From assembly GCA_000146045.2 (NCBI GenBank), contig BK006949.2, positions 544,001-608,000 on the forward strand: a DNA stretch of 64,000 nucleotides, read 5' to 3'. This document shows positions 11,957 through 48,331 of the stretch, in pieces (position 1 is the stretch's first letter; the number at the start of each line of letters is the position of its first letter). A program made the position numbers and the translations under genes. Source of the DNA: TPA_inf: Saccharomyces (Eukaryota). The notes below the pieces were generated by a model. It saw only the letters and a program-made list of their open reading frames with translations. It was not told the DNA's origin and did no database searches.

Positions 11957-12072
11957 ATCACATGATATATTTTTTATTTTTAATTTTTTTTAATTATAAA
12001 AATAATTTTTTTCTTTAAATTAAACAAAAATAAAAAATTGTTTTTTGTTGGTTAAGATTTCCGAAAATAGAA
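11957..12072 (+). other. CEN16: Point centromere CEN16 (CDEI-CDEII-CDEIII)
   Basis: CDEI is ATCACATG (RTCACRTG consensus) at 11957-11964. It is followed by an ~83-bp tract of more than 90% A+T (CDEII). CDEIII then has the invariant TTCCGAA core, with CCG at 12061-12063. The position between YPL001W and YPR001W matches the known centromere location. Confidence 0.88.
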
Positions 12073-12376
12073 ATATTATTCAGTTGAAAGACAAAAAAAC
12101 ATAAATATTTCTATGAGCAAACAATTTGAACAGAAAAATAAAATTGGGGAAGTGACACACCATGGTAGCGGTTCTAAAGCGAAATCGGCAAAGCGGCTAA
12201 ATAGCAGTTTTGATGACTTACTCCACACTGAAAATGGATGACCTTAAATAGGAGATAAAGCTTTTTCATCCCTATGTATTTAAGATGACTGGCTTGTCAA
12301 GCATTCTAATCATAAAAAAAAGATCGTATTTGATCAAGAATTTATACATAGACGCCGCTAAATAATTGAATACAAA

Positions 12377-16196: not shown

Positions 16197-16289
16197 ATGC
16201 GAATTCTGTGGATCGAACACAGGACCTCCAGATAACTTGACCGAAGTTTTTTCTTCAGTCTGGCGCTCTCCCAACTGAGCTAAATCCGC
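16197..16289 (-). tRNA. tF(GAA): tRNA-Phe (GAA) with ~19-nt intron
   Basis: The reverse complement reads GCGGATTTAGCTCAGTTGGGAGAGCGCCAGACTGAAGA[aaaaacttcggtcaagtta]TCTGGAGGTCCTGTGTTCGATCCACAGAATTCGCA, which is the classic yeast tRNA-Phe sequence with its intron. Confidence 0.93.
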
Positions 16290-31102: not shown

Positions 31103-32551
31103 TAAATTTGCTTTTCGTCTCTTGCTTCTCTGTAACTGTAGTTTTCCTCCTCCCACATATATATATATATATACACTTTTATACACCTAATAATATCATC
31201 GGCATTATGATTGCTTATACATTTTCATAATCAATATTACTGTTCACCATTTGAATCACTGCAGAAATATGCACTGCGCCTTCTTTTTCTTTGCCTGAAG
31301 CACCCACACACAAGAACAGGAATGTGAATGGCCTCCCCATCTCACTTTTACTTAATAGTATTCTGACAATATAAGGTATCAGAGAGTAAGACCATTATTA
31401 GGCAAACAATAATCTTCAGAATTTTTAGTAGCGCATTCTCAACCTTTCTAGGTGCGTTTTTCTAATGAAATAGTATCGTTTTCCTTCCGCATTCCTTGCG
31501 TAGTTTGTTGTGTAAATATAGCAATAAGAAACCCTATAAATCATTATGATGTAACTCCCGATTCTTTTAAATAATTACATAAACTAGGAAGGCAAGTCCG
31601 AACACGCAGAGATGAGGTATTTGCACTCAATGACAAATCTAGGTTTAAACTACGGGGCTCCATACCTTATCTCTTCACTTATCAAAAGTAGGCAAAAGAA
31701 AAGAAAATAAATATAATTTCTTTTTCTGCAGGCAAGATTTTAAAAGAACTTGCGCGTCCTCTGTGCAATCTACCTGGGGAGTCTCGGGCTTTAACCGCTC
31801 CCCATTCTAAACTGCTTCCATTGACGTGTACTATACTGCTCACTTCTTGCTCTTCGAGCAACAAAATCTGTATTACGTTTCTTACACTAGTCGAGTGAAA
31901 GAGATAAGATACCCACTTTTACTTGCCGGGAGAATGGAAAAGAGAAAACGGAAGAAAGGGCTTAAATACATTTTCCTTTAATATGAACATCCTACTGTAA
32001 GATAAAAATTGGATGCTGATAATGGAAAGGAGACATGTACGGTATGTACGGCAAAACCTCGGCGGGTTTTCGCCGCTAGCTCATATATTCTTTCGTTAAA
32101 TTTTAAAATTTCTTATTCTAAATCTTCTTTACATGTTTGGAAAGAATTTATTGGAGAGAAAAATCTAGACCTGCCAAGCCGATAAACGAATGCCTGCGAA
32201 GAAATAGTGTAAATATTACTCCTGAAGGTAGAGTCATCTAGGCGGAGACGAAAACAAAGTTTAGCTTTTCGTGAAATTGCCCATTTCATGTTTATCAACC
32301 ACCAAAGGTTAAATGGAGGTTTGACAAAAGAAATTTTCTTGCTAAAGGTTAGCATTTTTTTTGGAATTTTTTTTCCTTCGACTGGCTGTAGTTGTCCTTC
32401 TATATTACGTACAACAAAAACTTTCTTGAATGAAGAATTAGTTCTATCATATAGACCATAAGAAAGAAAACGCACTTGGATAATTTTTAACAAAGAAGAG
32501 GGCAAACTGACGCTCACCAAGCTATTGGTTTGTTTGGATCAATCGTCAGAT

Positions 32552-33358
32552 ATGAAGCCGAACAATCGAACTTGTGATGTAATTACCAACAAAGATGAAT
32601 CTCTTCCTGCACTTTTGCTGCCTGCACTGAACAGTTACACCTGTGACGATTCATTGCTAAAAGGACAAATTTCAAGCAATGGCAGATATCAACCATTCGG
32701 GTTTTCTGATTGCTCTTTACTGCCAAAGCGTTTAAACATTCAGGCAGGGCAAGGATCTATGCCAGTTTCTTCGATTCAATGTGCAGACCACAGTTATAGT
32801 AATTGGCAAAAAGAATCCGAAAAGACTAAGCTTCCCAAGCTTGGTTGCCCAACAGAGTACACTGAATACTATAAAACTGTTTCTTCCGGCGAAACAACCG
32901 ATTCAGCGGTTGTTTCATCTATAGCAACGAACAGACTCAAAAGAAAACGTCAGAGGGACGGCCCAAGTTGTGACTCTTGTAGGATAAAGAAAATAAAATG
33001 CAATGCAACAATCATTATCTTTTTACAGGATAGGAACCTAATTTCATCAATTTCTTCAAATTTGCATTATACACTTTCCCAAGACGACATAAACCAGTTT
33101 CGAATGAAGTTTTTCAGGAAACTGCCTGACGTGATGGGCACATATGAAGTCATAAAACACCTTGATAAAATAGTCCTTTTCAAAGCCTGCACCTCTTGCA
33201 GTAGAAGAAACCAAAAAAATGGAAAGTGTCTTTTTTCGAGAGGATTTACAAAATCTGATATGAACGTATTTCCCAAGATAAATAGTAAACTTAAAGACAA
33301 AAGTATCTTCGAGATGACTGTCGATGATTATGTTGCCGCTGGCTTCCAAACCCTTTAG
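32552..33358 (+). CDS. SUT2: Zn(II)2Cys6 transcription factor (sterol uptake regulator paralogue), 268 aa
   Basis: A CDSCRIKKIKCN zinc-cluster motif is present. The known protein begins MKPNNRTCDV, which is Met10 of the longest ORF. Confidence 0.72.
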   Translation: MKPNNRTCDVITNKDESLPALLLPALNSYTCDDSLLKGQISSNGRYQPFGFSDCSLLPKRLNIQAGQGSMPVSSIQCADHSYSNWQKESEKTKLPKLGCPTEYTEYYKTVSSGETTDSAVVSSIATNRLKRKRQRDGPSCDSCRIKKIKCNATIIIFLQDRNLISSISSNLHYTLSQDDINQFRMKFFRKLPDVMGTYEVIKHLDKIVLFKACTSCSRRNQKNGKCLFSRGFTKSDMNVFPKINSKLKDKSIFEMTVDDYVAAGFQTL

Positions 33359-40042: not shown

Positions 40043-40631
40043 GTTAGCGAAATAACGATTAAAAAATTTGAAAGTCAATACTATGAAACAAGGAAACGAG
40101 CAACTTGGTATACTTCCCTCACCTTTGTTAAATTCACTTGGCCTTACTGGCAATCATAATCATTTTGACGAACTGCGGACATCGAGAGTACCCTGCAAAT
40201 ATATCTAGAAAAAGAGGTAAAAAAATATTGAAGGGTCAACCTGAAAAAAATTGAAAAGTGAAAATAGATCTGCTGATAAATAATGCACGGCTTGCATCAA
40301 GTGATCACATGGAACTTTCCCAATACCTCAACTACGCATTTTCCCTTGCATATTATATCATCATCCATCTTCTTTGCCTCTCATATATTTACGAAATAAT
40401 ACATAAACATAAAAACGTCTTTGTGCGTCCAAGTAAACTTGAAGACGCACTCCCGTTATATAAAACTGGGAAGAACACTAACAAAGAAGGTGACTTGCGC
40501 TTAATTAGTTTTATTCCCTTGCTTCTAAAGTCCGTAAAACATTCTATTAGAGTCTATACATAGTTTTGCCTTACCTTTGAATATGAGTTCTAAAAATTCC
40601 ATTGCAATAAAGCTTTCCGTTCCTATTGTTT

Positions 40632-41585
40632 CTATGTAGTGTTTAAGACTTTGTTTCTTTTCCTTTCATGGCTTTTCAAATGTCTCAGCATATTGCTTTT
40701 CACATTGAAGGATTTTGTGCAACCCTCCCAAGTACATTTGAAAGGAGTATCTCCCGTATGAATTAAGTAATGTGTCTTCAGCGTTGAGGGCCTCGAACAA
40801 ATTTTTCCACATACTGGGCACTGCTTTCTCAGCTTTGTGGATGATATTCGGGTGTCAGTTTTCCAATCAGAAAATGTTGCTGAACCGTTCAACACGGCAC
40901 CAGGTTCGCTTTTTGTTCTGCCGTTACTGGCTTCCTGCATGGTTGGAAGTACGCCATACCCAGGTGGGACTGATTTTGGCCTATCGTGGCATAGCTCTAA
41001 GGCAGCGTTTGGGTGACTCGCCATTGATATTGCAGTGAAGTTAGGTTCGGAGGCAATTGTTATTGGTTCTTTGTCGTATGGTGTCAATGGTTTATATACT
41101 GTTGGGACCATGACTGGCATCATCAAGGGAGCAGAGGAGGTCAAATGAGGAGACTGGCTATGTGGTATTGGTTGCTGACTTTCCGTATAGTAGATAGGAT
41201 ATTGATCAGATGTTGCGTTCATGGAAATTGGGGTGTAGATCTCATTAACAATGGGTACAACATTCATGCTTTGATAAACTTGCTGTGGAGGGAATTGAAC
41301 CCTTGAATCTACGTTAGGTGGTGTATTATTTTCAAAATTAGGCAAAAGGGATGAAATTGGTGGTAAGTTTATTTTCGTACTATTATAACATTCCCGTTCA
41401 TTTTTGTAGCTATTGTGGCCATAAAATTGAGTCCCCTTACCAGTGCTCAGCTGATCAACTGCGGACACTTGAAGGGGGAGGTTCGATTTATAATTGACTG
41501 TACACATTCCTATATTAGGAGATCTTGACTTGTCTGTATATGATGATTGTTTTTCTGAACTTTGCTTTGAAAGGGAAAAATTCAT
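40632..41585 (-). CDS. CMR3: C2H2 zinc-finger protein (C-terminal tandem fingers), 317 aa
   Basis: The C-terminus reads QCPVCGKICSRPSTLKTHYLIHTGDTPFKCTWEGCTKSFNVKSNMLRHLKSHE. The 317-aa length matches YPR013C. Confidence 0.75.
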   Translation of the reverse strand: MNFSLSKQSSEKQSSYTDKSRSPNIGMCTVNYKSNLPLQVSAVDQLSTGKGTQFYGHNSYKNERECYNSTKINLPPISSLLPNFENNTPPNVDSRVQFPPQQVYQSMNVVPIVNEIYTPISMNATSDQYPIYYTESQQPIPHSQSPHLTSSAPLMMPVMVPTVYKPLTPYDKEPITIASEPNFTAISMASHPNAALELCHDRPKSVPPGYGVLPTMQEASNGRTKSEPGAVLNGSATFSDWKTDTRISSTKLRKQCPVCGKICSRPSTLKTHYLIHTGDTPFKCTWEGCTKSFNVKSNMLRHLKSHERKRNKVLNTT

Positions 41586-44500
41586 GTAATTTACTTTAGT
41601 GGCGTTTACTGCTATTTTTCGAAGGTAGGTGATGAACTTGTGTTATAACTAAGAAGCTCAAAACTAAAAGTATACTAATGTTTGAGGAATTATTGTGAAG
41701 CCATAGAACAATAAAAAGCTAACAATTGTATCTTTCGTTCAACTTGTCAAACCCTGACAGGCATATAAAAGAGGTATTTTGAAACATCAACATGTAGTAG
41801 TCACATATATAGCAAAATAGTAAGTAAGGAAAAAAAGAAGGCACAGAGAATACAACAATAATGATGAAGGCACACGACTGCCCTTTCCGGGCCACCTGCA
41901 GATCTGTAAGGTAGTTCAAATGACGTTCTCGCGCGGGTTTCTTACTTATGAAACTTTAGGGACATAAGTCGGGAACCTGATGCATCATTCTTTATCTTGT
42001 TTTTTGTTGTTGTTTGAGTTTCTTGTACAGAATAATACGCAGAATTAAAGCGGAAGTTAAAAAACAGATCGTCTTGATCTGCCCTCAAAACCAGTATCCA
42101 CTGAAAACCTTATTTCCCACCGTAAATGGCAATCACTCGTAGCTCAAGGTGGAATGCTCCCGTAAGGATATTTCCTATATGAGATAGTCCCGATCCTGAG
42201 AAGAGGGATCGCCGTCATTTTATTCTTTAACCCCGAGAAACGGCATCTCTCACCTGATTGTTCTCAAGATTGCTGCAAAACCCAGATATACTTTTAGGTA
42301 CGGAGCGTACGCGATGTATATGGATTGATTTTCACATGTATCGTTTATGAGTACTTGACTGCACCTCGTGTCGGAAGATTTTCCAATCGGGCTTTTTTTC
42401 AATCTTGAAGGCCCTCCTTTTCATTTCCATTTGCTCTGACATTGCGGCTATGCATCACAGGCAAAAGCTGAAAAGGAAATTTTGTAGCGTATCGGTTTAC
42501 TGCACAGTCTCAGACCCTTTGTAGTACTGTTACCTGGAAGAATAGTAGGTGCGTACAACAGTGATTATGTAGTAGTATCTACTGAAGAGCCTACGAGCGA
42601 AAAAAAAAAAAATTATCGGCTACATTACGTTGTTTCCTACGGAGACAAGAACCAATATAAGCTGCAAAAAATCTATGAGCATTTTAAGTTTCCGATACAA
42701 CAAGATGTATGCGTACTATTCACGTCGTGTTATATTGCTCACGTAACAACTTCTATGACAATAATAAAAAATAACCTTTCCATTGTATCATTAAGGTTAT
42801 CTACGGAGGATTGTCAAACCTAGCGGATATGAAATGTACTTGATTCCTAATTCGGGTTTATTTAGAGTTCAGACTATGTGGGTCATTTCTTATGCTAATA
42901 ATAGGCACTGAGGTAAGTCAAAATAGCGACACTCAATTACTGTTGAATGGGAAGAAAAAACCGAGAAAGGGATACAGAGATCTTGCCCACGCCTTTTTTT
43001 CAAAAAGAGCCCTTCGCAAGGTTGCTCAACGGGATTGTCATAGAAAGAAAAAATCAAAGCCAATAACTACAAGGCCAAAAGTAATGGTAGGGAGCTACTA
43101 CAAAGTGGGCTCAGCCTACCTGAAGAAAATAAACAATTAATGGACAAGATCTGTTAGCGGACATACAAGAGATCAAATTACCTTCTGGTTAATGCTGTAG
43201 GCGAAGCAAACCATTCAATTGAGGAAACCTTATTCCCAATTGCGCTTTTGCTCCCTGGAAGCCTATAACAGCGTGTGGGCAAATAAAGTTGTTTTTCGCC
43301 CTCAGCGACTTTACTTCGGAAACTGAAGAGCGGCTAGAAATTTCGCAGAAAAGATTTTCCTTTGAGGATAGAAAAATGAAAAAAAGAAATTTATCTTTTT
43401 TCACAACAGGTGCTGCTTTTTCCTCACGTATGCACAGAATGCAAAGTACAAGATTTGTAATACGCGACTCCGCGCAGCTGTACTCTACTCCCAAGTCAGC
43501 GGAAAAAATGCAAGACATACAGAAAGTTGCCGCTTTATTGGCTATTTTTTTGGGCGACAGCCCTGGCTAGCCTCCTCATTGGGTTGTAGAGGAAACAAAA
43601 CTGAGATGTCTTTGGACTAATGTCAGCAATAATAACTCGTAAAATCAAGTCAGAATTTCTATCCATTCAATAGGTATTCATTGTTTATGAAACTAAGAAA
43701 CGAATGTAAATAATTCTGGGATATAACAAATAGTTCCCTTTGGATTACTTAAAACATAGTACTGCAGCTAAAATTTGTAAAAATGTTAACGTTTCTTTGC
43801 GTTGAGTAACTTGACCTTCACACGTAGTTGCAAGTACCGATGCAAAATTTTTACACTGGTGACAACCTTAATGGTATAATCCAATTAGCGACATCACCGA
43901 GAAAGTATCCAAGTCGATTTGATGAATAAAATAATAACTTAAACATTCAACGCCGTTTGTTAATACTGACACCTGAAGGAGAGTCAAAAAGGCAAACTTT
44001 CTTGCAACAATCATAAAGCTAAGGCACCGCTAGAGCTTACGATATTGGCCGCAAAAATAACTATTACACTTTTTCGTTTCTGTGGAAATGTAGGGTGATC
44101 AACTGGCTAATTGCTGCCTTTTAAGATATGCGGAGGAGATTGTGCAGCCATTTTCATTTTAGCGACTCATTGATGGAAGTATTCAAGTCAAGATCACTTG
44201 TTTAAATTCAAGACTACTGTTTAAATTCATAATTTTTTATTGCTATCTTTTTTTTACCACAGATCTGACCGACACTCCCGCTTATCGCCCATTGCGGCAT
44301 ATACTTAGGCAAGTCAAAAGCCGAGGACAGCAGTTGAAGACAGGCTACAATTTCTATAGTAGCTTTTTTTCGTTCCTAATTTCTCCAAACACTTTAAGTT
44401 TCTTGAAACGTAAATGATACTGCGAAAAATTTGATTTCGTTCTGAAGATACTATCAATTAAACGTGCACTAGGTGCTGTTCCCTCGATGAGCTGCCGCGC

Positions 44501-45279
44501 TAACCCGTACCCCCCAATTTTGAGCGATTTTAGTGAGTTGTGTTATATAATCCAGGGGTACTCTGCTCCGCGATTTGTGTGATAGCAGCCATAAATGCCC
44601 CACGCCAAAGTTCCACGTTCAAATAAAACTTACATCAAAAATTCTTTCTCTTTGAAGTAAATATGCGTGGGGATTGCTGAATAAGCAGCCCAGTGAACAT
44701 CAGCGCTTTCTGTAAATCATTTATCAGCTAACAATAATTACATAATATAAACCTCCAATAACTGTCCTGCTAGTGGCACGTTGTTGGCTGTCAGAAACGA
44801 AATGTGGGTCCTATTTACCCCTTGGTTTTAGTATGGGAGCACGAATGGTAAACACCTTCTCATAAAATAACTGATAACGTCTTAAAGCGACCAAATACTT
44901 TATTGTTGCGGGCAAACATTATTGTTAAATGCGTGGTCTAGAAGTAAAATTTTCTGCATAGTTCACTGTTATGTAAATTTTGAACTTGAAATCTTTTCTT
45001 AGAAAGAGTCTGTCATCCTTGGAAACATTGCTGACCAAGAATACGATATTGTGAGAAGACATTGTACCCAAAAAAAATTTTTCATTCCTATAGTTTGGAT
45101 TGGAGATGATTCAAACACAGCATATTCATGTGTTACCTTCCCGGTTATGCACGAGGTCAATGAGACCGTTCCCTTGTGTTGTACCAGTGGTAGGGTTCTT
45201 CTCGGTAGCTTCTCCGCAATAAGAATGATTGAATCATATTGTAACATTAGATTTTGGCCTTTCACTAATTACCGTAGGT

Positions 45280-45328
45280 AATTTTGTTGGTTAAACTGAC
45301 AAAGAATAAGAGTTTAACCAACAAAATT
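45280..45328. repeat. Perfect 18-bp inverted repeat (AATTTTGTTGGTTAAACT / AGTTTAACCAACAAAATT) with a 13-bp spacer; potential hairpin or cruciform
   Basis: This is a direct reading of the sequence. The arms are at 45280-45297 and 45311-45328 and are exact reverse complements. Confidence 0.9.
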
Positions 45329-46282
45329 AAGTCTTGGTGCATTGAATGGAAGAAAAGATGATACAACGCCAACCTAAAGAGTGGAAAGCGTTCTTTCAAA
45401 TGAGGGTAGTAGGAAATTCAGCGGGAAAGTTTGAAAATGTGGTGGTAAAACAATAATCCTGGTTTTTCTTTGTTATCCGATAGGAAATTTATCCCCTTCT
45501 ATGTTCCACTAATCACTTCATGGGTTGACTATCACTAGCGCATGAACTCCTTTTGACCAATAATAAGCACAATACTAAAGGTTGTGGTAATTGATAAATA
45601 AAGACTTCCATTGAAATGACAGAAACGATATGTATGAATCAGAATATCAAGCATGGATATATCATTGCGCTCAAACTTAGTCAAATTCCTTTGTTTTCTT
45701 AGTTTGTTATGACTCCCTTGACGTAATTATTCTTGCATTAATTTTGAGCTTCTGTAAACTTCATTGTTCCAATGGATCATTATATATTAACAACGTTGGC
45801 ATATACGTGACCGCAATTTGAACTACCTACATTTAACATACTTTTGTAGAGGAAAGAGGCTGTTTGTTCTTTAACCATGATTATACCAATTTAACCTTTT
45901 TTTTTTTTTTGATAGTGAACTGCATACTAGTCAGGTAATTGAATTCCTGGTACAGAGATTCATCAAGACATCCGTGTCGGCAACGTTGTACTAAATGAAA
46001 AGGTCCTTTGTCTTACGAACTAGACAGAATAAAATGTATCGTGCGGCAGTATAGAACCGTATTACAAATGCTGATGCATTCGCAAACAAATTTCTTGTAG
46101 AAATTATAATTCGAACAAAAATCCTCTCACTATTCAAAAATCGGAAGTCAGTAAAAATTGATTGTTGGCTACATGTAATATATTATATGGAACTAATACA
46201 TATCTATACTCATTTTACTTGGTAAAAAGTGTCACACCTACATCAAAATCACACTGAAAACAAAATATTCTAAACAATGCTT

Positions 46283-47026
46283 TCACTGATGTTTTTTCTT
46301 TGCTATTTTCTTTTGATGGGTTCTTAAATGCCTTAACATGTTACTCTTGACATTGAAAGATTTGTTGCAATGCTCCCAAGTACATTTGAAAGGTGTGTCT
46401 CCCGTATGTATTAAGTAATGAGTCCTCAGTGTTGAAGGTCTCGAACAAACCTTCCCACAGATAGGACATTGTTTCCGTAGCTTTACCACAGCGCGCAGTT
46501 GCTTTTGTATAAGATCTAAGTCGGTTTGTGTTTGGGATAATAGCGTCCCAGGATTTTGCCCTATATGCACATTCGGGAGGGAGTACTGCTCGTTGCTCAC
46601 CGCTCTGTGGTTTTCCTCCTGAAAATGCTGCATTGATGGAGGTACAGATTGGGCAGTATAAGAGGAAGCTGCCGTTGAATAAATAGGGCAACAAGATTGA
46701 CGTTCAACGAACGTTAAAGGGAAAGGTTGCGGTGTTGCTATAACCGGCGAAAAGATAATAGAGTTGGGACTTGATCTCCATACGGGATCCTCTGTCTGAT
46801 GCAGAGAAGAAGGTGCGTAATGGTAAGCGGGAGGTGGTAGTGCGGCCTGGTTTATTTCAGGAGTAAGTGGAGCGTGCATAATCGACGAACAAGGTGGAAG
46901 ATGCACTTCCCTTTTGGTCGTGTTCGAGACTTCCTTTGAAGATTGCGCATAGGATCCCCCTATGTTAGACGATGAACATTTCATTGGGCTACAAAGCATA
47001 GATTCTAGCGTTTTTGTTCTCCACAT
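46283..47026 (-). CDS. YPR015C: C2H2 zinc-finger protein, paralogue of YPR013C, 247 aa
   Basis: The C-terminus QCPICGKVCSRPSTLRTHYLIHTGDTPFKCTWEHCNKSFNVKSNMLRHLRTHQ is nearly identical to the YPR013C fingers. Confidence 0.78.
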   Translation of the reverse strand: MWRTKTLESMLCSPMKCSSSNIGGSYAQSSKEVSNTTKREVHLPPCSSIMHAPLTPEINQAALPPPAYHYAPSSLHQTEDPVWRSSPNSIIFSPVIATPQPFPLTFVERQSCCPIYSTAASSYTAQSVPPSMQHFQEENHRAVSNEQYSLPNVHIGQNPGTLLSQTQTDLDLIQKQLRAVVKLRKQCPICGKVCSRPSTLRTHYLIHTGDTPFKCTWEHCNKSFNVKSNMLRHLRTHQKKIAKKKHQ

Positions 47027-48331
47027 TTAATTAGTGTTGAAGATGAAAATTTATGTATATTAAAAGTTAGAAACGGGTCAATGAAGACGTTTGCTTATCG
47101 TATTGGATCCTTGCAATGCCCTCCAAAAAGAAGAAAAAAGTTGGACCAAGAAAACAATTATAATTTTGTAATTTGAAATATCTACCAATGAGGTCAAAAG
47201 AGCGACAACAACTAGCGCTTATATAATATAAAGAATTCTTGGGACTGTATCTCATGGCAACCAAATGCCGTTCATATTTAGGGTTTCAGTGGGAAAAGAT
47301 TTCCGGTGCTTTACGCTCCTTGTACAAACAAGTGCTGCGAAACTTTCTGTGGAAATCGTGCCTTTTAAACCATTAGTGAAGGCTCCAGATAGAGTTGTCA
47401 CAGAAAACAGCGTGGCGGACTTATTTTTTTGCAACGATTTTCTGGAAACAATAGAGGAAGAATTTTTGGCGTACGAAAAGGAACGATGCCCCCAACACCT
47501 CAACAATACTACGGAAGTTTCTTCGAGCGGAAAAACATCGAAATACTAGCTGTTTCTGGATATGAGAGTGGGTATGCGTGGCAATGGAACTCAGGGAGTT
47601 GTTGCTATTTCAGTGAGTACGATGGATCAGGGTGTTTATATCTCAAGAACTACCAAGTTGAAGAGATGAAACGTAGTTCGCTTGATAGCACATAAATGGA
47701 CGGCTGACTTGTTGTACACCATATATATATATATATATATATAATTTTACGGCTCACTTCTGTACCGCTTGTGAAAATCTTACCGCACAACCCCCGGTGT
47801 TCTATTAGCTTTGTTCGATTTTATTAATCTTTGCCAAGAGATACTACTCTCCGGGTTCTGGTGGAGACAATAGTATGTCCTAGCAGCTAGACAAAAAAGC
47901 CTTCAAATGGTCTACGTGCGGTGCAATTTTTCTTGGAGAAGTTCTATATTGTCTAACAGATACTTGGAACTGAGCAAGTTGTCAGAATAGTCGGAGAAGC
48001 GGACGGAAAATCCATATTATGCAAAGAATTTGCTTAGAAACCCGTTACATATGCTTCGAACAAAGTGACTACATGTTACAATTAAGACGCCTACTTAAAC
48101 TGCAATGAATAGTCACCCATAGGTATAAGAAAAAAAAAAAAAATAAAAGAGTACATAATATACATACAACTAAAATTAAAATGCATAGAAACCTAAGAAA
48201 AAATATTTGTTATACCAAAAAAAATACCACAAATGATACGTAAGAAGATTATTGCAACATGGGGACTCTTTCGCATACAACTGTAAACAGACTTGAGGAA
48301 GGAGGGGAATCCCCTCAGGAGTACCTGACAT

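Follow-up and report, generated by a model that had tools for sequence, protein, structure and literature searches.

What is the function, if any, of the long stretch of DNA that separates two neighbouring zinc-finger genes of Saccharomyces cerevisiae? The window (the whole 64-kb stretch of DNA analysed), which we take to be chrXVI:544001-608000, carries the CDEI and CDEIII elements of a yeast centromere at 11957-12073, a position that fits CEN16. The locus is that of CMR3 (YPR013C) and YPR015C on chrXVI, two genes coding for C2H2 transcription factors. Both ORFs were found in the ORF listing, in the same orientation:

40632-41585, minus strand: CMR3 (YPR013C), 317 aa, two-finger C2H2 domain at the C-terminus (ORF, Pfam zf-C2H2)
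46283-47026, minus strand: YPR015C, 247 aa, paralogous two-finger C2H2 gene (ORF, BLASTP, Pfam zf-C2H2)

CMR3 orthologs of five other Saccharomyces species were 72-86% identical, and substitutions followed codon periodicity in CMR3 (strong, p 2e-26) and in YPR015C (p 2e-25). A published YPR015C qPCR primer maps inside the ORF (46783-46802). Gene order, strands, protein lengths and sequences all agreed with the SGD-annotated locus (CMR3/YPR013C, dubious YPR014C, YPR015C, SUT418/YNCP0026W, SUT417), the features themselves showed no difference, and the SUT coordinates fell within the spacer; SUT417 reportedly goes back to Xu et al. 2009. The locus is well-formed, yet essentially known and already catalogued. 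Added here are a six-species conservation map, conserved sites for the motif of the genes' own family, and evidence against coding and against RNA structure; new are only the conserved modules and a possible auto- and cross-regulation, both of which we infer from sequence. As overall explanation we consider it likely that an ancient tandem C2H2 pair is separated by a non-coding regulatory spacer with the transcripts SUT417 and SUT418.

When ORFs are counted from ATG and from 120 aa upward, no gap in the 64-kb window was larger than the spacer (41586-46282, 4697 bp), as expected from the original prediction, which had called the interval much longer than usual for a yeast promoter. The next largest gap was 1865 bp, and gaps of 200-650 bp were typical. 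Spacer length was kept at 4.2-5.2 kb in six Saccharomyces species and at 4.6 kb in Kazachstania africana, and the single C. glabrata homolog has 5.9 kb of gene-free DNA upstream. Of two homopolymers reported earlier, A13 was present (42600-42612), but the supposed T15 is a T14 (45897-45910).

The conservation pattern distinguished the following segments:

41586-41811, minus strand: CMR3 5' leader and core promoter (six-species alignment)
41812-42460, no strand: block A, putative upstream regulatory region, flanked by the CMR3 core promoter on one side and the SUT417 5' end (as mapped) on the other
42770-43000, no strand: block B, distal module, 0.5-0.6 of columns identical in six species, no periodicity
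43270-43570, no strand: block C, distal module, 0.47-0.66 identical, no periodicity (p 0.78)
44250-44770, no strand: block D, distal module, 0.3-0.4 identical (alignment)
45873-46282, minus strand: YPR015C 3' flank (3' UTR and terminator zone), conservation 0.05-0.31, placement read from the sequence
47170-47570, no strand: conserved block upstream of YPR015C, 0.5-0.65 identical in six species

The ~3.2 kb nearest CMR3 holds blocks as conserved as the flanking coding sequence. In block A 60-75% of the columns were identical in six species, compared with 50-65% in the CMR3 coding sequence and 5-15% in ordinary nearby intergenic DNA, and codon periodicity was absent from this block (p 0.84). It contains 29 consecutive nt shared by all six species (42324-42352), a stretch that includes an ICRE-like CATGTGAAAAT, the tandem pair GCAGATCAAGACGATCT (42066-42082), CGGCGATC (42214 downward), AGATCTGCAG (~41895-41905) and two ATGCAT elements. 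Among the TATAWAW matches of the interval, only the TATATAT(G) box at ~41805-41811, ~220 bp upstream of the CMR3 ATG, was identical in all six species. Block B carries TGACAATCC (from 42816) and a Mcm1-like CCGAATTAGG (from 42855), block C a stretch of 21 nt that all six species share unchanged, CTTTGCATTCTGTGCATACGT (43426-43446), and block D the palindrome CAGATCTG (44260-44267), the inverted pair CCCACGC/GCGTGGGG, and CTAAAATCGCTCAA. The YPR015C-proximal 1.5 kb of the spacer was fast-evolving, and the YPR015C 3' flank was weakly conserved save for the 100 bp adjoining the stop codon.

The interval had been read as the upstream region of a tightly regulated gene, for which footprints should be sought in sensu stricto species. 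For CMR3 this is supported by the conserved non-coding blocks found upstream of it in six species, but the prediction missed that the same DNA forms the 3' flank of the other gene, YPR015C. The spacer would thus consist of three parts: the CMR3 core promoter with its conserved TATA box and a ~650-bp upstream region of coding-level conservation, ~2.4 kb with discrete putative cis-regulatory modules, and a fast-evolving ~1.5 kb serving as the 3' flank of YPR015C. In nhmmer and blastn comparisons the block upstream of YPR015C gave nothing significant against the spacer and no likeness to the CMR3 upstream blocks, and no sequence alignable with the conserved blocks was found upstream of homologs in more distant yeasts. 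Block-level conservation also occurs elsewhere, as in the 400 bp that precede the neighbouring YPR009W ORF (32552-33358), where it reaches 0.5-0.76.

Two published transcripts fall into the spacer:

42422-44952, plus strand: SUT417, published 2.5-kb stable unannotated transcript, chr16 + 586422-588952 (PMC9802208)
44950-45872, plus strand: SUT418 (SGD YNCP0026W), conservation 0-0.16 (PMC9802208 supplement)

The SUT417 coordinates are published values (supplementary file 5 of PMC9802208) to which the offset of 544000 was applied; the R64 coordinates of SUT418 convert to 44998-45830 (SGD update PMC11430078). According to the published maps the two transcripts together span ~3.45 kb of the spacer on the plus strand. 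The suspicion that the long region hides non-coding transcripts was thus supported by comparison with transcript maps, with two SUTs, both already catalogued, covering most of it. SUT417 heads from the CMR3 side toward YPR015C and passes through blocks B-D. SUT418 is contiguous with it, convergent with YPR015C and located where the spacer is least conserved; the two may be a single transcription unit. Deletion of SUT418 raised YPR015C mRNA by ~50% (1.5-fold, a small effect). This deletion also removes DNA, and the effects of the RNA and of a DNA element are inseparable in it.

Blocks B, C and D all lie within mapped SUT417, whose transcript is stable enough for the SUT class, and the blocks might be functional parts of a conserved lncRNA in which RNA sequence or structure, not DNA-binding sites, is conserved. 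This appears improbable. The only screen found gave no phenotype for the SUT417 deletion (invertase ratio 1.002; PMC9802208). RNAalifold gave very small consensus energies (-0.4 to -10.8 kcal/mol per 100 columns, mean z -0.36), and no Rfam family matched. Moreover, the blocks consist of short identical islands separated by gaps of variable length, with many indels, as is the pattern of a binding-site cluster, and block A, the most conserved, is outside the transcript.

Coding potential was assessed in the whole spacer, whose longest ORF is

43189-43518, minus strand: 109-aa ORF, not a gene; start codon gone in 3/5 sister species, premature stops in 4

This ORF, which is presumably YPR014C, 'dubious' in SGD, and which block C overlaps, had a frameshifted length in S. 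paradoxus, showed no periodicity of substitutions (p 0.54) and had no Pfam match. All spacer ORFs of 66-109 aa were interrupted in sister species, the five largest were without Pfam match, and no tRNA or Rfam match was detected within the spacer. The conserved blocks lacked 3-periodicity of substitutions (p 0.54-0.95), compared with p below 1e-25 in four control coding sequences. The spacer is non-coding throughout, and the original claim that it holds no credible ORF was borne out.

Many genes were lost in post-WGD yeasts, 4.7 kb could have housed 2-3 genes, and ~1.5 kb of the spacer changes about as fast as unconstrained DNA. That one or more lost genes (a third finger copy or an unrelated gene) decayed here and left the spacer behind, its length being a historical accident, is nevertheless very unlikely: besides the missing Pfam domains and codon periodicity, tblastn with eleven family proteins found nothing in the spacer better than E 0.7 and no trace of a third finger copy, in pre-WGD species no real gene lies between TIF6 and the single family member, and a relic would not retain runs of 10-29 nt identical in six species. 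A 238-aa ORF called in Zygotorulaspora mrakii between TIF6 and the family member was of low complexity, had no Pfam match and was not accepted as a real gene. We give equally little credence to the notion that the blocks encode unannotated smORFs, or that CMR3 translation is under the control of a conserved upstream ORF. Numerous small yeast ORFs are recent additions to the annotation (several are listed in PMC11430078), and the alignment showed a 4-codon uORF, ATG GCT TCA CAA TAA (~41692-41706), in 5/6 species; however, this uORF is absent from S. uvarum and may sit upstream of the transcription start, and the lack of periodicity and the broken ORFs described above apply here as well.

The original prediction of near-identical C-termini arising by local tandem duplication was supported, with the refinement that the event is old. 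In BLASTP, the C-terminal 85 aa of CMR3 and YPR015C matched with 66% identity (E 1e-39). Their finger core of 49 aa differs at just 5 residues, the two-finger domain is ~90% identical, and at the DNA level the genes share a 179-nt direct repeat of 79% identity. The similarity is well above the C2H2 background, since a generic multi-finger C2H2 protein (P0072) reached only 42% identity in the same database search. No similarity between the paralogs was found outside the finger region (BLASTP) or in the promoters (nhmmer, blastn). Between the finger regions of the paralogs dS was saturated or not computable within each species, compared with 0.4-1.9 for orthologs, and dN was 0.14-0.16, compared with 0.007 for the S. 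cerevisiae-S. uvarum orthologs. Paralog-specific residues (I/V swap, K>R, G>H, KS>RT, E>Q) were fixed in six Saccharomyces species. Saturated dS and fixed paralog-specific residues indicated that the fingers stay similar through purifying selection and not through recent duplication or gene conversion. Ongoing conversion between the neighbouring copies, or recent duplication, which the distance of 4.7 kb and the shared 179-nt stretch could favour, is extremely unlikely given also the lack of similarity outside the fingers and in the promoters, and paralogs closer at synonymous sites than between-species orthologs were looked for but not observed.

In the pre-WGD species Z. mrakii and Torulaspora globosa a single family member is located between TIF6 and a mitochondrial-carrier gene, whereas all six Saccharomyces species, K. 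africana and K. naganishii have two copies at the locus. These data support a tandem but ancient duplication, which, judged by gene content, postdates the divergence from the Zygotorulaspora/Torulaspora lineage, predates the Saccharomyces radiation and probably also predates the Kazachstania split. The CMR3 finger matches the single-copy pre-WGD proteins; CMR3 is taken as the ancestral-like and YPR015C as the derived copy. Purifying selection on DNA binding would keep the fingers of both proteins nearly identical. Because their base-contacting helix residues are the same, both proteins should read one motif (JASPAR-like YGTARATC, core RATC).

The JASPAR motif MA0434.1 is YGTARATCM, and the ChIP-seq motif of Candida albicans Irf1, YGNNRATC, i.e. 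(T/C)GNN(A/G)ATC, was described as the same as that of Cmr3. Of six YGNNRATC sites in the spacer, five were kept in all six species, compared with a pooled 7.5% for permuted motifs, 0/600 of which reached 5 kept sites (binomial 1.4e-5). In an unbiased k-mer scan AGATC / CAGATC was the top conservation-enriched word (6/12 conserved, p 3e-5). Only conservation was unusual; the raw count of YGNNRATC in the spacer was not above expectation (7 observed, 7.0 expected). The stricter YGTARATC had a single spacer match, TGTAAATC in block D (44711-44718), kept in 5/6 species, with S. uvarum departing from it. Upstream of homologs in more distant yeasts the motif excess was weak at most and non-significant. 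The conserved RATC-core sites are candidate sites for the genes' own family, though other factors may own them. Irf1 (Orf19.217) and Kluyveromyces lactis KLLA0F22319g belong to the same finger family. The K. lactis gene is itself under regulation, being repressed by Sir2, in keeping with a tightly controlled family. Unlike the tandem pair these two are single genes, their sequence outside the fingers is unrelated (19% identity overall), and non-coding similarity of the spacer was undetectable even to yeasts much closer than C. albicans or K. lactis.

A regulatory scheme can be proposed that builds on paralogy, duplication age, lack of coding potential, conservation pattern, the transcripts and the SUT418-deletion effect, all taken from this analysis or the literature. 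CMR3 would have a long, multi-input regulatory region, whose conserved own-family sites could mediate auto-regulation and cross-regulation by Ypr015c. Opposite-strand transcription, SUT417 followed by SUT418, would begin at the CMR3 promoter block's upstream edge, block A being a candidate bidirectional promoter that may act as such, and would run convergently toward the YPR015C 3' end. Such divergent non-coding transcription from the CMR3 region might mildly damp YPR015C in cis. The two paralogs may in this way be coupled.

Long regulatory regions associated with ncRNA are known for yeast developmental genes: FLO11 with ICR1/PWR1, IME1 with IRT1 and SER3 with SRG1. As in those systems, the upstream region here is gene-free over several kb and has several discrete conserved modules, non-coding transcription takes place in the regulatory region, and the target is itself a regulator. 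In those systems the ncRNA crosses the target promoter in sense direction and represses the target, whereas the catalogued SUTs point away from CMR3 and are convergent with YPR015C. Since SUT417 does not cross the CMR3 promoter, classic cis-interference is not directly applicable to CMR3. A class of convergent or antisense SUT-gene pairs with mild cis repression was reportedly defined by Xu et al. 2009, and such pairs have been studied with an ncRNA deletion collection. SUT418 and YPR015C resemble them in being convergent and in the rise of YPR015C mRNA upon deletion. By its mapped coordinates SUT418 stops ~400 bp before the YPR015C stop codon is reached, and the SUT418-deletion study notes intervening ncRNAs, so that the two may not overlap directly.

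The two zinc-finger genes that border the spacer are both encoded on the minus strand:

40632-41585, minus strand, CMR3 (YPR013C) ORF, 317 aa, two zf-C2H2 fingers at the C-terminus (Pfam)
46283-47026, minus strand, YPR015C ORF, 247 aa, two zf-C2H2 fingers at the C-terminus (Pfam)

Both proteins contain a tandem C-x2-C-x12-H-x3/4-H finger pair, and both exceeded the gathering threshold of Pfam PF00096 (39.7 and 44.6 bits, two stretches per protein; cut-off 25.2 bits). The original prediction was that the two proteins share nearly identical C-terminal fingers and have diverged N-terminal regions, and alignment bore this out. In BLASTP the last 85 residues were 66% identical (E 1e-39), five of the 49 residues of the finger core differed, and the N-terminal parts gave no alignment. 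At the DNA level the finger regions constitute a 179-nt direct repeat of 79% identity. The likeness between CMR3 and YPR015C is far above the C2H2 background, since a generic multi-finger protein (P0072) reached only 42% identity in the same database search. The signature CP[VI]CGK.CSRPSTL[KR]TH..IHTGDTPFKC.W..C.K[SA]FNVKSN[ML][ML]RH was found in both proteins and in 17 homologs from related loci, placing both in the Cmr3/Ypr015c/Irf1 subfamily; a protein search yielded 73 database homologs with an E-value of 1e-10 or better. Helix positions -1, 2, 3 and 6 are identical in Cmr3 and Ypr015c. Because the base-contacting residues are the same, a common DNA motif is expected under the standard C2H2 recognition model; an Asn(+3)-adenine contact has been described for Ypr013c (PMC3113574). 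A published YPR015C qPCR primer maps to 46783-46802.

Searches with the 317-aa protein detected full-length orthologs (72-86% identity) in S. paradoxus, S. mikatae, S. kudriavzevii, S. arboricola and S. uvarum, and homologs across the Saccharomycetaceae in which similarity was limited to the fingers. The arrangement of the family genes was as follows:

Five other Saccharomyces species: TIF6, YPR015C ortholog, spacer without called gene, CMR3 ortholog, mitochondrial carrier
K. africana: two copies, arranged as in Saccharomyces
K. naganishii: two copies, one inverted
C. glabrata: single copy at the carrier-linked locus
Z. mrakii and T. globosa (pre-WGD): single family member between TIF6 and the carrier

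Gene calling placed nothing between the two copies in any of the six Saccharomyces species, nor in K. africana. The genes are thus adjacent, on the same (minus) strand and without an intervening gene, and the outgroups are single-copy, as is characteristic of tandem duplicates. A 238-aa ORF called beside the Z. mrakii family gene is of low complexity and has no finger. Origin of the pair as whole-genome-duplication ohnologs was discarded, the copies lying 4.7 kb apart inside one syntenic block. A further family member lies elsewhere in the genome of both K. africana and K. naganishii and may be the ohnolog-track copy.

The local duplication that had been proposed thus stood, with the refinement that the event is an old one. 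Over the 62 codons of the finger segment, comparison of the paralogs gave a saturated dS, with a value of 3.5 in S. cerevisiae and none computable in the remaining five species; paralog dN was 0.14-0.16 versus 0.007 for the S. cerevisiae-S. uvarum orthologs. The diagnostic residues of each paralog were identical in six of six species. The saturated dS and the constancy of these residues argue that the duplication is old, not recent. Gene conversion, by which the fingers would have been kept alike, finds little support for the same two reasons; the finger similarity has been maintained by selection and is due neither to recency nor to conversion. The finger sequence of CMR3 is that of the single-copy outgroups and, judged from these comparisons, YPR015C is the derived copy. 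The upstream copy of Kazachstania, a candidate one-to-one ortholog of YPR015C from a single duplication event, occupies the syntenic position and carries none of the YPR015C-specific residues; its N-terminal region is too diverged to compare.

Two of the loci showed peculiarities. At the K. naganishii locus (L008, 10001-15150) both family members are 435 aa long and convergent, so that, compared with Saccharomyces and K. africana, one of them is inverted. At the C. glabrata locus (L009, 4112-10000) 5.9 kb without called gene lies upstream of the single family member, which exceeds the S. cerevisiae spacer. Because the C. glabrata gene call, when translated, does not agree with the database protein, the annotated gene may have an intron or begin at another start.

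The spacer between CMR3 and YPR015C (41586-46282) measures 4697 bp. Among the gaps that separate ATG ORFs of at least 120 aa in the window it is the largest, followed by one of 1865 bp, and most are 200-650 bp long. Spacer length has been maintained, at 4.2-5.2 kb within Saccharomyces and 4.6 kb in K. africana, besides the 5.9 kb in C. glabrata; the corresponding stretch is only 2.35 kb in Z. mrakii and 0.44 kb in T. globosa. Of the two homopolymer tracts noticed earlier the A13 was found (42600-42612); the supposed T15 is a T14 run at 45897-45910.

The claim that the interval holds no credible ORF was upheld. In a six-species MAFFT alignment all spacer ORFs of 66-109 aa were interrupted or frameshifted in sister species, including the largest:

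43189-43518, 109-aa ORF, disrupted in sister species, which we take to be SGD's dubious YPR014C

The five largest ORFs contained no Pfam domain. The four coding sequences at the flanks showed strongly 3-periodic substitutions (p 2e-25 to 5e-47), and in the conserved spacer blocks described below the pattern was flat (p 0.54-0.95). The suggestion that these blocks are small ORFs thus has little to support it, given the missing periodicity and the ORFs broken in sister species. RNAalifold consensus energies were very weak (mean z -0.36) and lend no support to a conserved RNA structure; a functional structured lncRNA also has little in its favor. A decayed gene relic has little support, as tblastn with eleven family proteins found no family match and hence no third finger gene in the spacer. 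From the broken ORFs, the missing periodicity and the lack of Pfam matches and of a family relic a protein-coding gene was rejected, and a structured or known ncRNA gene was rejected from the weak energies and from tRNA and Rfam scans without match in 41586-46282. The spacer is non-coding. A replication origin was rejected as well: the exact 11-bp ACS WTTTAYRTTTW occurs six times in the window, nowhere in the spacer and nearest at 40404-40414. A scan for bacterial-type promoters and terminators, which is not applicable to a eukaryote, showed no enrichment.

Conservation was expressed, in 100-bp windows, as the proportion of alignment columns in which all six species agree. Four conserved blocks were delimited in the spacer: A (41812-42460), B (42770-43000), C (43270-43570) and D (44250-44770). 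The values obtained were:

CMR3 coding sequence: 0.50-0.65 identical
41586-42400, spacer: 0.39-0.75 identical, at least 0.5 in seven of eight 100-bp windows
42770-43000, spacer: 0.5-0.6 identical
43270-43570, spacer: 0.47-0.66 identical
44270-44770, spacer: 0.17-0.4 identical
47670-48070 and 45270-46170, ordinary intergenic DNA: 0.00-0.15 identical

The blocks extend upstream from the CMR3 start codon for about 3.2 kb. In having a gene-free upstream region of more than 2 kb with several conserved modules, the locus agrees with ncRNA-controlled long promoters. It had been suggested that such a region belongs to a tightly regulated gene, and the sensu stricto comparison, with its conserved non-coding blocks upstream of CMR3, is in agreement. 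The longest runs identical in six species are 29 nt (42324-42352), 21 nt (43426-43446) and 17 nt (42066-42082). Short identical islands alternate with spacers of variable length and many indels, as expected of binding-site clusters. Only one TATA-type match, a TATATAT(G) box at about 41805-41811, is kept in all six species; its distance from the CMR3 ATG, which lies downstream, is some 220 bp. Between this box and the ATG, a candidate four-codon uORF (ATG GCT TCA CAA TAA, minus strand, 41692-41706) is kept in five of six species (ATG TCT TCG CAA TAA in S. arboricola) and is absent from S. uvarum.

The level of conservation is not unusual, because the 400 bp (32160-32560) upstream of a 268-aa ORF at 32552-33358, which served as a baseline promoter, is about equally conserved (0.5-0.76 identical in six species); this ORF is presumably YPR009W/SUT2. 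What is unusual is the number of blocks and their spread over about 3.2 kb. Conservation of the spacer sequence is confined to Saccharomyces, since in nhmmer searches block profiles matched nothing at E <=10 in the K. africana, K. naganishii, C. glabrata, N. dairenensis, Z. mrakii and T. globosa loci. A duplicated promoter was excluded: the region upstream of YPR015C has no similarity to the spacer.

The long interval had also been suspected to hide non-coding transcripts. Two are in fact published, SUT417 (chr16, plus, 586422-588952) and SUT418 (chr16, plus, 588950-589872; ncRNA deletion collection table, PMC9802208 supplement), the latter annotated in SGD as YNCP0026W, 588998-589830 (PMC11430078). 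In window coordinates (PMC9802208 supplement) they are:

42422-44952, plus strand, SUT417
44950-45872, plus strand, SUT418

Together they span about 3.45 kb of the 4.7-kb spacer and, as they abut, may form a single transcription unit. The start of SUT417 coincides with the distal edge of block A, and blocks B-D fall within the transcript; no paper discussing SUT417 was found in the searchable literature. SUT418 occupies the stretch with the lowest conservation and is directed at the 3' end of YPR015C. Deletion of SUT418 raised YPR015C mRNA by about 50% and increased invertase secretion, and the authors mentioned further ncRNAs between SUT418 and YPR015C. This effect on YPR015C is the sole measured effect of these SUTs on the gene pair. 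The supposedly neutral CRISPR integration site CS8 has been placed between YPR014C and YPR015C. Insertions there may not be neutral, because the site lies inside SUT417/SUT418, and SUT418 deletion alters YPR015C expression and invertase secretion. SUT418 contains a perfect inverted repeat of 19 bp around a loop of 13 nt (45279-45329, TAATTTTGTTGGTTAAACT ... AGTTTAACCAACAAAATTA); it looks S. cerevisiae-specific, since its surroundings are unalignable in five sister species.

Candida albicans Irf1 binds (T/C)GNN(A/G)ATC, stated by the authors to be identical to the Cmr3 motif (PMC9393397), and MA0434.1, the JASPAR entry for YPR013C, is said to match YGTARATCM (PMC11718402). The motif YGNNRATC, set a priori, has six sites in the S. 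cerevisiae spacer, five of which still match in all six species. Among 600 column-permuted versions used as control, the pooled conserved fraction was 7.5% and none had five conserved sites (binomial 1.4e-5). For the 7-mer GNNRATC 7/12 sites were conserved. An unbiased scan of 5- to 7-mers ranked AGATC/CAGATC first among fully conserved positions (6/12, p 3e-5), with instances at 41904, at 42081 and in the palindrome CAGATCTG at 44260-44267; ATGCA(T) was second. The raw number of family-motif sites was not above expectation, and the strict YGTARATC has a single spacer site, from which S. uvarum deviates. Among upstream regions of homologs in other yeasts, that of K. naganishii was nominally high (7 observed versus 2.6 expected, reached in 2% of permutations), and in the remaining yeasts no significant excess was found. 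The conserved own-motif sites lend moderate support to a possible auto- and cross-regulation of CMR3 and YPR015C.

Twenty-nine textbook yeast motifs gave only single conserved matches and, having no control, serve as leads only. A presumed Mcm1-like site CCGAATTAGG (42846-42855) lies within a six-species identical run and a presumed ICRE-like site CATGTGAAAAT in the identical run 42324-42352, both assigned without control. An inverted pair, CCCACGC ... GCGTGGGG, with arms about 60 nt apart (44595-44675), is kept in six species, and its second arm GCGTGGGG matches the Mig1-type GTGGGG core.

The best-supported interpretation is that the spacer serves as the extended 5' regulatory region of CMR3 plus the 3' flank of YPR015C. 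Block A would be a shared or bidirectional control region for CMR3 (minus strand) and SUT417 (plus strand), the distal blocks would add further inputs, several of them through the family's own motif core, and non-coding transcription from the spacer would mildly repress YPR015C in cis. A stronger version, which we consider improbable, makes the spacer a conserved cis-regulatory switch coupling the paralogs: Cmr3 and Ypr015c would act on the conserved CAGATC/RATC sites of a bidirectional promoter, this promoter would drive both CMR3 and a SUT417-SUT418 transcript of about 3.5 kb, and this convergent transcription would damp YPR015C. If that were so, non-coding transcription would provide a feedback from the expression of one paralog to the other, and the retention of a 4-5 kb spacer since before the Saccharomyces radiation would be explained.

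Like the FLO11/ICR1-PWR1, IME1/IRT1 and SER3/SRG1 control regions, the CMR3 spacer is long, modular and associated with ncRNA. The likeness is at most partial, because the known SUTs are transcribed away from CMR3 and not, as in the FLO11, IME1 and SER3 systems, across the promoter. The components of the locus (CMR3, YPR014C, YPR015C, SUT417 and SUT418/YNCP0026W) are all catalogued, and a double-mutant transcriptome and overexpression phenotypes have been published. The present analysis adds a comparative map, negative coding and structure tests and conserved own-motif sites, and does not overturn current understanding. The spacer is not junk, and no gene has been missed in it; it combines regulatory DNA with non-coding transcription around a poorly understood pair of transcription factors and is a clean example of a compact yeast genome keeping a long intergenic region. 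Its conserved modules and own-motif sites offer specific positions for probing auto- and cross-regulation of CMR3 and YPR015C.

Elsewhere in the window a point centromere was recognized at 11957-12073, with CDEI ATCACATG starting at 11957, followed by the AT-rich CDEII (about 85 nt) and by CDEIII, which contains TTCCGAAA and ends near 12073. Its position fits CEN16 and gave the chromosomal offset; from the centromere, the gene order and the YPR015C primer the window is recognized as S. cerevisiae chrXVI:544001-608000. A tRNA at 16198-16289 (minus strand) was found by Rfam (56.7 bits) and had no ARAGORN match; it probably contains an intron, as it is 92 nt long.
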